Of a DNA stretch of 64,000 nt, positions 50,936 to 54,830 are shown piece after piece. The stretch lies in contig CM119380.1 of the NCBI GenBank assembly GCA_051294905.1, positions 14,384,001 to 14,448,000 on the forward strand, given 5' to 3'. Origin of the DNA: Botryllus schlosseri (taxonomy: Eukaryota). The notes beneath the pieces were generated by a model. It did not search any database and was not told the origin of the DNA. It worked only from the letters and a program-made list of their open reading frames with translations. The first letter of the stretch is position 1, and every line of letters begins with the position of its first letter. The translations under genes and the position numbers were made by a program.

Positions 50936-52630
50936 ATGGGCATTCTGATGAAAAGAGATTGTGATCCTCCTGGACATAATTGCATTTATATTCCACCTGG
51001 AGATCACCGGGTTGAACATTACAGACTTGCAACGTTCAAACATTTTCCGAAAGAAACTCCTGTGATACCGAGTTATCTAGCCGCTGCTGGTTTCTATTGG
51101 ACAGGATTTCAAGATAGAGTAAGATGTTACTGCTGTGGAGTATCTGTGGAAAAATGGGTTACTGGAGATGATGCTTTTGATGATAAGTGGCATAAATCTA
51201 CTTGTGACATGGTGACCGGACAACATAGTTATAACTTGCCTATTTCAAATTGCTCAAGGGGGCTCCTTTTTGAACAAATCAGGTGTCACCTTAATCTTAC
51301 TACAAGAAGTCAACAAACTAATCGGAATGTGCAAAGACCAACTATCAAAGAGGAAAAATGTCCATTACCGCAGATCGTGTTTGCGAACATTTGTGACCGG
51401 GAACATGAGACTTCATTGCGATCAGCAAATTTGAGAAGAGAACTCGAGAGGAGAAGAACCTTTGACAAATGGCCTTCCTATCCTACTCCATACTTGGTAG
51501 GGGAGTTGGCAAAACAGGGATTTTTCTACCTGGGAAACCTTGACAGAGTGCAATGTTTTTCATGCTCAGGAGTACTGAGAAACTGGGCACCCACTGATAA
51601 TGTCCTTGAACAACATAAAAGACATTTTACAAAATGCAAAATGGCAAATAACGAGTATGCGGGAAACATATCCTTGACAAACTTCGAGAGAAATCAGGCA
51701 GATAATGAACTTAAAATAAAAATTGAAAAGTTAACTGCTAATAGGGGAGAACCTCCGGACCCATCCCCAGAAGAACAACTCCAGTTGGTGGAAAGATTCC
51801 CTTGTCTTTACCCGATGAACTTGCATATGATATCATTACAGCAAAGAATATCTTCGTTTAATGAAACATGGCCTAGGATCCTCGCAACAGCGGAACAATT
51901 GGCTAAAGCGGGTATGTATTATCTCGGGAATTCGGACAGAGTGAAATGCTTTTATTGCAATGGAGGATTACAAAACTGGAACTACAATGATGAGCCGTGG
52001 ACAGAGCATGCAAAGTGGTTTCCTGGTTGTGAATATGTTTTGCAAATGAAGGGTATTGATTTCGTTTTACGAATAAGAGATGAACATCCCAATCTCAATC
52101 GACCATCGATAAGGAATGCAATATGTCTTGATGTACCACGAGAGGAGATACGAAGGAACCATAATCGATCAAGGTTATCTGGACAATACATAAACAGGAT
52201 GCAACTAGAAGACATGGGATTCACGAGAGATCAAATAGAAGGAACTATAAATAGACAGACTAATGATCATTTCTCTACTGATGACTTAATTCAGGACTTA
52301 CTGGAAACAGTAAATACAATTACAGCCAGTCCAACGAAAACAACACAACAACAAGGCAATAGCATATCTGAAAATAATCACGAAGTGAACAACGACAAAG
52401 AAACGAAAGAAGCAGCCGTTGCAGAAACAATGTCGGTGGATGAGATTGCGCAAAGTTTGAAAGAAATACAAGAGGTAGTGCTTTGCAAAAATTGCAAGAG
52501 GAACAAAAGTGAAGTCACTTTCGTACCTTGTGGACATTTATGTAGTTGTGAAAAATGTGCAACGAACTCCGAAAGGTGCAATATTTGTGGAGAAAAAATA
52601 CTTGAAAAGATAAAGGTGTATAGAGCTTGA
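50936..52630 (+). CDS. Inhibitor of apoptosis protein: 3 BIR, UBA-like, RING (564 aa), intronless
   Basis: Three RxxTF/SF...G.YY.G..DRV.C..C...W...H...C repeats; LEDMGF; C-terminal C3HC4 RING (CKNC..PCGHLCSCEKC..CNIC). Confidence 0.95.
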   Translation: MGILMKRDCDPPGHNCIYIPPGDHRVEHYRLATFKHFPKETPVIPSYLAAAGFYWTGFQDRVRCYCCGVSVEKWVTGDDAFDDKWHKSTCDMVTGQHSYNLPISNCSRGLLFEQIRCHLNLTTRSQQTNRNVQRPTIKEEKCPLPQIVFANICDREHETSLRSANLRRELERRRTFDKWPSYPTPYLVGELAKQGFFYLGNLDRVQCFSCSGVLRNWAPTDNVLEQHKRHFTKCKMANNEYAGNISLTNFERNQADNELKIKIEKLTANRGEPPDPSPEEQLQLVERFPCLYPMNLHMISLQQRISSFNETWPRILATAEQLAKAGMYYLGNSDRVKCFYCNGGLQNWNYNDEPWTEHAKWFPGCEYVLQMKGIDFVLRIRDEHPNLNRPSIRNAICLDVPREEIRRNHNRSRLSGQYINRMQLEDMGFTRDQIEGTINRQTNDHFSTDDLIQDLLETVNTITASPTKTTQQQGNSISENNHEVNNDKETKEAAVAETMSVDEIAQSLKEIQEVVLCKNCKRNKSEVTFVPCGHLCSCEKCATNSERCNICGEKILEKIKVYRA

Positions 52631-52776
52631 TGGAGCAGGCAGGACTATCATTTTGTGGCATGAGTGCTCTTTATGCATATGTATAATGCATGATGTTACT
52701 AGTTACTTTTGTGTGTATGAATCAATTATTCGTAAAATTGAACATACGATTTTAAAGTATTTTATTCTATATTAAG

Positions 52777-53232
52777 ATGACTAAAGTATTAGAGAATTGG
52801 GAAATTACGCTAGCCAAGAAACAAATTAATGAATACTATGATGAATTTGAACAGGAATACCATCATCAAAATTTTGAGATATGGAAAAATACCCCAAAGG
52901 AAAAATTCAAACAATTAATAAAGAAATACCTCCATCATTGTTTTGCGAATGTGACAGAAAAGCTTTTTGATAAGCTTTATGACGCACATAGTGATATTGC
53001 TCGCGTTTTTGTTACAAAAGATTTTGATCTGGCCCAATATACATGGTTTGGACTTGTTCTAAAATTACATCCGGCTCATAAATATCTACCAGAAGAATTT
53101 CTGGATGAAAGATTACCACAAATGGAATTAAAAGATTCTGCAACATTACTTCTGAATGCTCGAGAATTTGAAACTGTTGCTATTCCGATTTTAGAAGACG
53201 CCTGTTCGAAAATTGTTATATTACACGATTAA
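52777..53232 (+). CDS. Orphan family A protein (151 aa)
   Basis: Clear paralog of 54967; shares H..I...(N/D)(Y/F)..A...W.....HP with 53238 and 55590. Confidence 0.72.
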   Translation: MTKVLENWEITLAKKQINEYYDEFEQEYHHQNFEIWKNTPKEKFKQLIKKYLHHCFANVTEKLFDKLYDAHSDIARVFVTKDFDLAQYTWFGLVLKLHPAHKYLPEEFLDERLPQMELKDSATLLLNAREFETVAIPILEDACSKIVILHD

Positions 53233-53237
53233 GAAGA

Positions 53238-53633
53238 ATGTCTCAAAGAAACAGAAGTAACCAGGAATTATTACAGACGGGATATGAATCAGCAGAGTGC
53301 GACTTAAAATATTATTTTGACATATTCTGTAAATACTATGAAGAAGATGTGGAAATTTCCGACAGATGGCAAAGATGGGCTATGACAAGACCCAATGACA
53401 TTGTTGGAATGCTAACGTTGTATGTTGACAAAGTTTACGGGAATGCATTATCTCCGCAGGGAAAAGCTCGGGGGTATCATGCTGCTATCAAAGAACATAA
53501 TAGGATTGCAATTATTACACTGGGAAACTATAAGGAAGCCAAATTTCTTTGGTACCAACATATTGTTCGTATGCATCCCTTGAAGGAAAACTTTTCAGAA
53601 CAATGGATAAAAGGATGTTTGAAAGATGATTAA
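53238..53633 (+). CDS. Orphan family A protein (131 aa)
   Basis: Paralog of 55590 (AECDLKYYF / AEQDLIFYF; GNYKEAKFLW / GNYERAKFLW; RMHP). Confidence 0.72.
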   Translation: MSQRNRSNQELLQTGYESAECDLKYYFDIFCKYYEEDVEISDRWQRWAMTRPNDIVGMLTLYVDKVYGNALSPQGKARGYHAAIKEHNRIAIITLGNYKEAKFLWYQHIVRMHPLKENFSEQWIKGCLKDD

Positions 53634-53863
53634 CTGAAATGATACATATGCTGCATCAGATTTTCCACTATATCAGTTGGATATGGTGTGATTTTAAAAA
53701 CCATGTACTATATCCAATATAAAAACTAGAATTAAAAACTTTTGTTTGTGTAATCATGTTGGTTGACTGATTAAGACTATTTGGATTTTTAACGATGTTT
53801 GGGTTTTTTTTTGTGTAAGGAATTTTTAAGACATTAATAATTTGTTTGATCTTTGATTGTGAC

Positions 53864-54313
53864 ATGTTGGAAGTCAATCATGAAAAATATGAGTATGTGC
53901 CAAAAGACCCACAGAAGAGGGAATTGAATCGGAAAAAGTTTAGACCGTGTCCATACCATACGATACCTGACAGCAGAGTTGCTTGGCTAAGGATGGGAGT
54001 TGTACATGAACGAATAAAAGAAAGAATAGAAAACTTTCCGACTTTGACAGCCAATGACATGGAATACGTATTGAAGGATTTTCTTGTTTGGCTATACCGG
54101 GACCATGAGGTGGCGGAACAATTGAAATGCGCCAAAAGAGTACTGGAGCAAATTGTGGAAGAGAACTTTGGAGAGAGCCCTGCATACTACTTGTATGTAT
54201 TTTTACGATATGTGTTGGCTATAGCTAATGTTGACGAAGATTGGAACATCACTAGCAAAACTATTGCCGGTTTTTCACGGGCTATGTATACTATGGATAA
54301 ACGACTGAATTAG
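53864..54313 (+). CDS. Orphan protein (149 aa from ATG 53864)
   Basis: Long ORF within the array; no recognisable domain. Confidence 0.55.
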   Translation: MLEVNHEKYEYVPKDPQKRELNRKKFRPCPYHTIPDSRVAWLRMGVVHERIKERIENFPTLTANDMEYVLKDFLVWLYRDHEVAEQLKCAKRVLEQIVEENFGESPAYYLYVFLRYVLAIANVDEDWNITSKTIAGFSRAMYTMDKRLN

Positions 54314-54374
54314 TGATATTTTCTTTTCTTTTTATGTGTATCAAGTCTTGTTGGATAATATTAATCTACACCGA

Positions 54375-54830
54375 ATGGCAAAACATAGATTACATGTTGA
54401 ACGGCGAAAGATCGACCAAGAAATTCAAACAAATCCTGTAATTTTGCAAGCAGGGCCATTGGACGAGTCAGATATCTATGTTTGGCAAGCACTTTTGCGC
54501 GGACCCTCAAAAACACCATATGAAAAAGGGACATTTCTCCTTAGAATTGAATTTCCAACGGAATATCCATTCAAGCCTCCGAAGATCAAATTTGAAACCA
54601 GAATTTTCCATCCGAATATAAGCCGTAGAGGTACCATATGTATTGACATTCTTGCAAATGAATGGTCACCTGCTTTAACGTTGGGAAAAGTATTGGTCTC
54701 GATTTCATCATTATTGGCTTCCCCTAACCCAGAAGATCCAATGGATGTTGAGAGCGCCAGACTGTATCGGGATGACTATGAAAGTTATCAGAAGATGGCA
54801 AGAAACTGGACTGATATGTATGCTAAGTAA
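54375..54830 (+). CDS. Ubiquitin-conjugating enzyme E2, UBC4/UBE2D-like (151 aa), intronless
   Basis: GPSKTPYEKGTF, FPTEYPFKPPKIKF, HPNI, catalytic Cys in GTICIDIL, WSPALT, PNPEDP. Confidence 0.95.
   Translation: MAKHRLHVERRKIDQEIQTNPVILQAGPLDESDIYVWQALLRGPSKTPYEKGTFLLRIEFPTEYPFKPPKIKFETRIFHPNISRRGTICIDILANEWSPALTLGKVLVSISSLLASPNPEDPMDVESARLYRDDYESYQKMARNWTDMYAK

Follow-up and report, generated by a model that had tools for sequence, protein, structure and literature searches.

What brings an inhibitor of apoptosis (IAP) gene and a ubiquitin-conjugating enzyme (E2) gene together, both intronless, at one locus of the tunicate Botryllus schlosseri, and do their products act as a pair? The locus lies in a stretch of 64,000 nucleotides (the window; assembly GCA_051294905.1, contig CM119380.1, positions 14,384,001 to 14,448,000), in which the IAP gene (50936-52630) and the E2 gene (54375-54830) are single open frames 1744 bp apart. 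The original prediction rightly described both as intact, intronless and close to each other, while its view of them as a self-contained module does not hold: they lie within a 38-kb mobile element (25935-63974), of which they are host-derived accessory cargo with purifying selection on both. The element itself is proposed, with a probability of about 65%, to replicate by reverse transcription from a circularised copy and to insert by its own Merlin-type transposase. The genes and sequence signals of the element given below are on the + strand.

The carrier and its insertion marks

Two other copies align over window positions 25935-63974, and beyond this span only dispersed repeats align. The element encodes two transposases, two membrane glycoproteins, about 14 cargo open reading frames (ORFs), a gag and a pol that lacks integrase. 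At its ends it has imperfect inverted repeats, about 23 bp long and of the form GG...CC (about 16 of 23 nt matching), placed by end comparison at 25935..25957 on the left, starting with GG, and at 63952..63974 on the right, ending with CC. Bordering them are the two identical copies of an 8-bp target-site duplication (25927..25934 and 63975..63982). Matches to the left end begin within 4 nt of base 25935 in 31 of 40 cases, at an identity of at least 84%. Among 23 copies, the target duplication is an exact 8 bp in 19, 9 bp in one, 8 bp with a mismatch in one and absent in two; all seven further short copies have exact 8-bp duplications (26/30 exact in total).

Merlin transposons are defined, in the available sections of PMC8101967, by 5'-GG ends, short imperfect inverted repeats and 8-9-bp target duplications. 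The element has the 5'-GG ends, the inverted repeats, the 8-9-bp duplications and a DDE_Tnp_IS1595 transposase with a DDE motif. Transposase 1 (26334..27173; PF12762 at 7e-10; D107, D170 and E motif) is of the Merlin/IS1595 type and intact in 18 of 20 copies, with a ratio of nonsynonymous to synonymous substitution (dN/dS) of 0.10; transposase 2 (48809..49756; PF12762 at 5e-17; DDE motif; dN/dS 0.18), of the same type, is 39% identical to it. Comparison of the element ends found no direct repeat common to both, such as a pair of long terminal repeats (LTRs), and the domain search gave no integrase match; pol instead has a Tpt1-like domain, and the element ends 272 bp after pol. It is because of the 8-bp duplications, the GG...CC ends, the intact DDE motifs and the lack of both an integrase and an end-shared repeat that insertion is ascribed to a transposase. 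The carrier is a retroelement with transposon ends and not a large DNA virus of the kind that the original prediction cited for its IAPs.

The IAP and E2 genes are element-borne and multicopy, which answers the original prediction's proposed check of whether copy number is linked to the element. Within the same element ends, 26 dispersed E2 matches of 91-100% identity occur in the animal's own genome; among the matches listed, the E2 has a full-length IAP as neighbour in 24, the RING part only in one and no IAP in one, counts of IAP beside E2 that are lower bounds, with 77 of 589 candidates scored. For each of the 16 genes tested, the dN/dS between pairs of intact copies lies within 0.10-0.39. 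The original prediction had itself named two ways in which it could fail, namely that the genes are the host's syntenic single-copy orthologs or that they show a dN/dS near 1 and no expression. A reading along these lines, as host orthologs or as neutral retrocopies sitting by chance in a repeat, draws on their similarity to host genes and on nothing beyond; against at least 26 dispersed copies within the same element ends, separate host source loci and dN/dS values of 0.18 (IAP) and 0.10 (E2), it can be practically dismissed.

All cargo is missing from two copies whose transposase, envelope genes, gag and pol are intact and whose target duplications are perfect; the cargo is therefore dispensable in cis. 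A non-autonomous subfamily of 10-14 kb (G000 C1:0.75, C2:31.8, C3:3.99, C3:6.13 and C7:23.8 Mb) has no transposase, envelope genes or reverse transcriptase (RT) core and retains both ends, the leader, the primer site and a shortened gag. Another copy is flanked by a 7.5-kb inverted repeat (G000:C10:4929843-4937348 and 4977598-4985111), with a 1-kb palindrome adjoining its left end; the target of this insertion was apparently a palindromic element.

Signs of a probable RNA step

All 19 nt of a primer-binding site (57147..57165) are complementary to the 3' end of the host tRNA-Ile(AAT) plus CCA, a match expected by chance at about 2e-5. The site is retained in all 28 main-family copies examined, with no more than one mismatch over 18 nt, and among them are five short copies without RT core and transposase. 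A sister subfamily with 72-79% nucleotide identity has a match to a different tRNA at this position: in two of its copies, 18 of 18 nt fit tRNA-Thr(AGT), and one more related copy has the same tRNA-Thr(AGT) site.

Located 250 nt upstream of the primer site, and fixed in the DNA, is a 24-nt leader (56898..56921) that is common to the 5' ends of many host mRNAs and is the predicted start of the genomic RNA. Reads in which the leader directly follows the template-switch adaptor and is itself followed by varied sequence number 3110, 7953 and 336 in three runs. Ascidians trans-splice a leader onto mRNAs, and we infer that the 24-nt sequence is the host spliced leader; no published ascidian leader sequence was found in the literature searched. 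Of 30 copies, 28 have the leader. The other two have lost it through deletions that stop at short homologies, 4 and about 76 nt above the primer site, as misplaced strong-stop transfer would produce; a third deletion stops about 580 nt above that site. The RNA step is proposed because the primer site is both kept and switched, the leader is fixed, the deletions end where they do, the IAP is intronless, and the RT and RNase H, whose motifs are intact, are under selection.

Of the genomic sites bearing the leader, more than half are without main-family downstream sequence and are followed by varied sequence; such sites may mark other retroelements. An RNA depth peak at 56412-57045 was considered as expression of the element and rejected, as it is host leader-bearing mRNA. 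In a single-cell run, sense-strand reads pile up just upstream of the leader, possibly at a 3' end or from a related family; this observation was not used.

Possible joining of the ends and the proposed cycle

In the inserted order, gag-pol comes last and nothing follows it; a leader-started RNA would therefore cover the element only if the ends were joined. Copy-distance matrices from 20 copies correlate at 0.52 between the left and right blocks, at 0.34 between left and middle and at 0.35 between middle and right. The distances fit the RNA order (rho -0.44) and a circular order (-0.36) more closely than the inserted order (-0.15), and the pattern at the protein level is similar. This left-right linkage is suggestive, and suggestive only, of joined ends.

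In the proposed cycle, an inserted copy would be excised and its two ends joined. Read from the leader, the circle would run leader, primer site, gag, pol, end junction, transposase, envelope genes and cargo, which would be the order found in retroviruses (gag-pol-integrase-env) if the transposase is put in place of the integrase. A full-length RNA would be packaged by Gag and copied from a tRNA-Ile primer, after which the DNA would circularise and the transposase would open the circle at the end junction, inserting it with an 8-bp duplication.

The same insertion marks suit a giant Merlin DNA transposon that moves by cut-and-paste only and once captured a retroelement (leader, primer site, gag and pol) along with envelope and host genes; its RT would yield retrocopies or particles, not new full-length elements. 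Every insertion mark is indeed of the Merlin type as described in the available text of PMC8101967, internally deleted copies that keep both ends are typical of DNA transposons, and neither a circle nor a full-length RNA was seen. Such a transposon would leave unexplained the leader and primer site of copies without RT and transposase, the switch of the primer site to another perfect tRNA match, the two deletions that end just above the primer site and the left-right linkage; it is considered unlikely.

Several points weigh against replication through a circle and an RNA. The leader is not peculiar to the element, being found at 87 or more genomic sites, and relics of it are common in this genome. 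No convincing polypurine tract near the predicted U3 was found in the element, the weak candidate being a purine run at 26146..26159 that is kept in three of eight short copies. In three bulk RNA runs, of which 6-13% was read, the element is near-silent and no full-length element RNA was seen; expression of IAP and E2 is near zero, with part of the IAP signal due to reads of the host IAP. A 38-kb RNA would also be very long for reverse transcription. The linkage itself is weak: the middle block correlates at only 0.40 within itself, the windows compared are not independent, an order that begins near 48.4 kb does equally well (-0.455), and co-adaptation of the core genes could yield the same left-right pattern. 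No end-to-end junction was found among 15 of 108 joints, the copy tested sitting in a high-copy repeat. Finally, the contigs of Pol relatives from elsewhere are shorter than 5 kb, so that linkage of such a Pol to a transposase is known from the animal's own genome alone.

A bolder reading, given somewhat less than an even chance, treats the element as a new class of enveloped reverse-transcribing tunicate virus. Its provirus would be a circular permutation of a 38-kb RNA that starts with the host spliced leader, with the Merlin transposase in the integrase slot and the insertion site between pol and transposase, while the captured IAP and E2 would tune cell death and ubiquitin pathways.

Origin of the IAP

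The IAP ORF encodes a protein of 564 residues with three BIR domains, a UBA-like segment and a C-terminal RING (Pfam BIR at 1.5e-60, with three BIR matches; zf-C3HC4_3 at 1.5e-9). In 21 of 21 copies, BIR2 and BIR3 show the canonical C2HC zinc-ligand spacing, and BIR3 gives a good alignment to its counterpart in cIAP1; the spacing of BIR1 is non-canonical, likewise in the host parent gene. The RING keeps all zinc ligands and a C-terminal aromatic residue, Tyr562, equivalent to cIAP1 Phe616. The gene is intact in 21 of 23 copies, with the dN/dS of 0.18 calculated pairwise among intact copies.

The top database relatives are tunicate IAPs, with those of Styela clava first at 41-45% identity, which points to a stolidobranch ascidian as the probable host. 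At least eight exons of a host gene (G000:C12:7.161-7.202 Mb) match the element IAP, with identities of 41-83%; GT/AG junctions are visible at several borders of these exons, and the element protein is continuous across these points. The multi-exon structure of the host gene and the uninterrupted element protein support a retro-capture, the element IAP being a processed copy of that gene. The origin of both genes as captured host cDNAs, as originally predicted, is thus borne out for the IAP and not for the E2, the likely host source of which is already intronless.

Origin of the E2

The E2 ORF encodes 151 residues (UQ_con at 1.1e-47) of a divergent, UBE2D-related host subfamily. The UBC fold and the catalytic motifs are intact (YPF, WSPA, HPN79-81 and Cys89), and the gene is intact in 23 of 23 copies, again with dN/dS (0.10) from pairs of intact copies. 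The UBE2D-like label of the original prediction is right in so far as UBE2D2 is the nearest solved relative (2.4e-50); it misleads in that identity to the host canonical UBE2D genes is just 50-52% and the element E2 falls in a separate clade.

In a quick tree of 56 rows, in which 12 of the 26 main copies and both divergent copies represent the element, the element E2s form one group (SH-aLRT 92) with one unnamed database protein inside. This group is nested in a clade with a host tandem array (C1:34.46-34.49 Mb; 80-81% identity), and a long branch splits the canonical host UBE2D from that clade (SH-aLRT 99). The array belongs to a larger tandem set of about 20 intronless, divergent UBE2D-related genes at G000:C1:34.12-34.49 Mb. 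The coding regions of the host canonical UBE2D genes and of the closest array are single-exon; thus, the lack of introns in the element E2 is no proof of retro-capture. The E2 probably derives from this divergent, already intronless array and not from canonical UBE2D, with the direction from array to element. With these results, the phylogenetic comparison to host genes that the original prediction called for points to a multi-exon host parent for the IAP and to a divergent host array for the E2.

Do the IAP and E2 form a matched pair?

The original prediction held the two genes to be a matched E2-E3 pair. Such a co-adapted pair, in which the IAP RING and the element E2 ubiquitinate caspases or IAP antagonists, appears doubtful, although it has some points in its favour: 24 of 26 close E2 copies have an adjoining full-length IAP match, both divergent copies have both genes, and purifying selection acts on the two. 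The RING zinc ligands and Tyr562 are kept, as are the YPF, WSPA and HPN motifs and Cys89 of the E2. The co-occurrence of IAP and E2 is, however, common to all cargo genes, and three further ORFs (151, 131 and 149 residues) stand between the two. Copy distances of IAP and E2 correlate weakly (rho 0.31) compared to 0.88 within the IAP, and Polinton-like elements carry E2s of the same family with no IAP seen in the stretches examined.

Residues of the RING also speak against the pairing. In cIAP1, Val573 sits in the core that contacts UbcH5B, R606A impairs discharge, and Val573 and Arg606 contact UbcH5B and ubiquitin, according to the part of PMC6349121 available. In the element IAP the Val573 equivalent is Asn, His or Gln and the equivalent of the Arg606 linchpin is Gly or Asp, each in 21 of 21 copies; the RING thus has neither the hydrophobic residue nor the linchpin Arg of the canonical cIAP type. 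The host parent IAP already has Gln and Lys at these positions. Changes of the linchpin have anything from a mild effect to a complete loss of activity as their result, and XIAP is an example of an active ligase that has no Arg there, as described in the accessible portion of PMC12326332; a divergent E2 could also fit a divergent RING.

The same portion of PMC12326332 reports that XIAP inhibits caspases via its BIR regions despite weak ligase activity. The element IAP is read from its residues as a BIR-based inhibitor with a weak or non-canonical RING. It would hold off cell death via its BIR domains, with BIR2 and BIR3 binding caspases or IAP antagonists, and not as the matched ligase of the E2. 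The E2, intact in its catalytic motifs, would be a paralog that was acquired separately and perhaps works with ligases of the host. The claim of a matched pair is unsupported; it is limited to the cargo and, as such, is compatible with the favoured cycle of reverse transcription and transposase-mediated insertion.

Other genes of the element

Downstream of transposase 1, an envelope-like glycoprotein (27303..29819; dN/dS 0.21) has a basic cleavage-like site, a hydrophobic segment and a C-terminal membrane anchor. Its weak ESM feature matches to viral spike and fusion proteins (0.89-0.91) are consistent with a predicted fusogen role. A second membrane glycoprotein (29906..33379; dN/dS 0.39) has a Ser/Thr-rich region and an N-terminus that resembles the first (E 1.8e-7). 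These are followed by an 8-kb region without long ORFs that is common to copies (33380..41755). The first part of the cargo array (41756..50692) includes ORFs of 165, 172, 286, 218, 168 and 236 residues, a leucine-rich repeat (LRR) protein (47103-48131) and transposase 2; the LRR, 168-residue and 236-residue ORFs have dN/dS of 0.15-0.23.

Between the IAP and the E2 lie two small helical proteins of 151 and 131 residues (52777..53633; dN/dS 0.14 and 0.18) and a conserved 149-residue ORF with no family match (53864..54313; dN/dS 0.14). After the E2 come small paralogs of 152 and 149 residues (54967..56039; dN/dS 0.12 and 0.25). The four small helical paralogs flanking the E2 share an invariant W...HP motif and are under selection in every copy; comparisons with Pfam, ESM features and known folds gave no match for them (model pLDDT 75.6; top Z 6.2, to a designed protein).

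Upstream of gag is a small hydrophobic ORF of 89 residues (57195..57464) with a counterpart in the sister subfamily. The Gag-like protein (57473..60289; dN/dS 0.23) has a CCHC knuckle, its PF00098 match of 4.9e-4 being just under the cut-off. Pol (60382..63702; dN/dS 0.17) consists of a protease motif, RT, RNase H and a Tpt1/KptA-like domain, with no integrase. The nearest solved structure to RT-RNase H is 8r0s (1e-19), which we take to be a caulimoviral RT. In Pol and its relatives, the Tpt1/KptA-like domain (63220-63700) occupies the integrase position and may act in ADP-ribose chemistry or in the repair of RNA ends. Other assemblies hold relatives of this Pol, at 36-51% identity, that likewise combine RT and RNase H with a Tpt1-like domain and give no integrase match; a quick tree of 33 rows, none of them a named reference, places these Tpt1-bearing relatives in a clade of their own apart from integrase-bearing matches (SH-aLRT 99). 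Among viral contigs, 40 pattern matches included no relatives.

Related mobile elements in the genome

Polinton/Maverick-like elements (L048:66-6036, L202-L203 and L200; G000 C10:4.92 Mb, C2:2.21 Mb and C11:4.52 Mb), the ORFs of which are presumably capsid-, protease- and polymerase-like, also carry an E2 of the divergent family. These E2s are another branch of that family, and the host array at C1:34.12-34.49 Mb is the likely source pool for them and for the element E2. No IAP was seen in the Polinton-like stretches examined. Two Polinton-like elements also carry a 172-residue ORF with a BH3-like motif, suggestive of a Bcl-2 relative, and many of the Polinton-like-element E2s have a tRNA gene within about 200 bp. 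Palindromic elements of about 14 kb (L189-L195 and L204; G000 C6:10.85, C7:5.23 and C4:10.59 Mb) carry RING-less IAPs of 385-404 residues in each of their two arms, with dozens of such pairs among the matches listed. Several unrelated mobile elements in one genome thus draw on the same host IAP and E2 pools. Outside the element, window positions 6549-14479 hold pieces of a P-element/THAP-type transposase, bounded by 90-bp inverted repeats that also enclose a 104-bp tandem repeat.

Comparison with known systems

To our knowledge, reverse-transcribing elements insert via a retroviral integrase between LTRs, via a tyrosine recombinase, or not at all. The combination of tRNA priming with insertion by a terminal-inverted-repeat transposase would, if true, be a further route, in which mobile elements of class I and class II function together as a single replicon of 38 kb. 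Annotation based on LTRs would miss such an element. No description of a Merlin-ended, integrase-less retroelement was found in the literature, in a search not reaching Repbase, most subscription papers or supplements.

Caulimoviridae and DIRS-type elements have circular intermediates, the former without an integration enzyme and the latter with a tyrosine recombinase. The element is like them in reverse transcription without a retroviral integrase and unlike them in bearing the insertion marks of a DDE transposase. Ty3/gypsy elements (Metaviridae), Troyka (PMC12440569) and Kuafuorterviruses (PMC11673190) share with the element a Gag, the protease-RT-RNase H order and a tRNA primer site before gag, as far as the available parts of these sources describe them. 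By contrast, they have two LTRs and 3-6-bp duplications (PMC12440569, same parts), and Troyka and Kuafuorterviruses were rejected as the identity of the element on LTRs and duplication length. Of the features of Ty3/gypsy elements and retroviruses, the element has the tRNA primer site and has neither two LTRs nor an integrase after RNase H; its RT falls outside the integrase-bearing matches included in the quick tree.

Merlin/IS1595 transposons share the 5'-GG ends, imperfect inverted repeats, 8-9-bp duplications and DDE_Tnp_IS1595 domain (PMC8101967, available sections). The element differs from them in its 38-kb size, two transposases, selected gag, RT and envelope-like genes and tRNA primer site. 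Teratorn, a piggyBac transposase fused with an alloherpesvirus, is similar in that a DDE enzyme makes a virus-like genome insertable, with short inverted ends and host-like cargo (PMC6431247, in the text available). In the element, the partner is instead a reverse-transcribing gag-pol-env and not a DNA herpesvirus, and the transposase is of the Merlin/IS1595 type.

The cargo differs from its relatives: unlike tunicate IAPs, the element IAP has a RING without canonical E2-contact and linchpin residues, and unlike UBE2D/UBC4, the E2 is a member of a lineage-specific group of paralogs that have about 50% identity to canonical UBE2D. Anti-apoptotic cargo as such has a precedent in Burro1, and the novelty lies in the carrier, resting on the inferred cycle. 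Burro1, a giant Ty3/gypsy LTR retrotransposon of planarians, is similarly larger than 30 kb, with gag-pol, an env-like region and a captured BIR and RING, and its anti-apoptotic BIR/RING region is reported to protect stem cells in the accessible text of PMC6431247 and PMC13465017. According to the same text, Burro1 has LTRs and an integrase, with its extras largely in one polyprotein. The element, by contrast, has no integrase or LTR pair and has Merlin ends, transposases and separate cargo ORFs that include the E2. With this cargo, a second animal lineage, following the planarians with Burro1, has a giant retroelement that carries a selected IAP.

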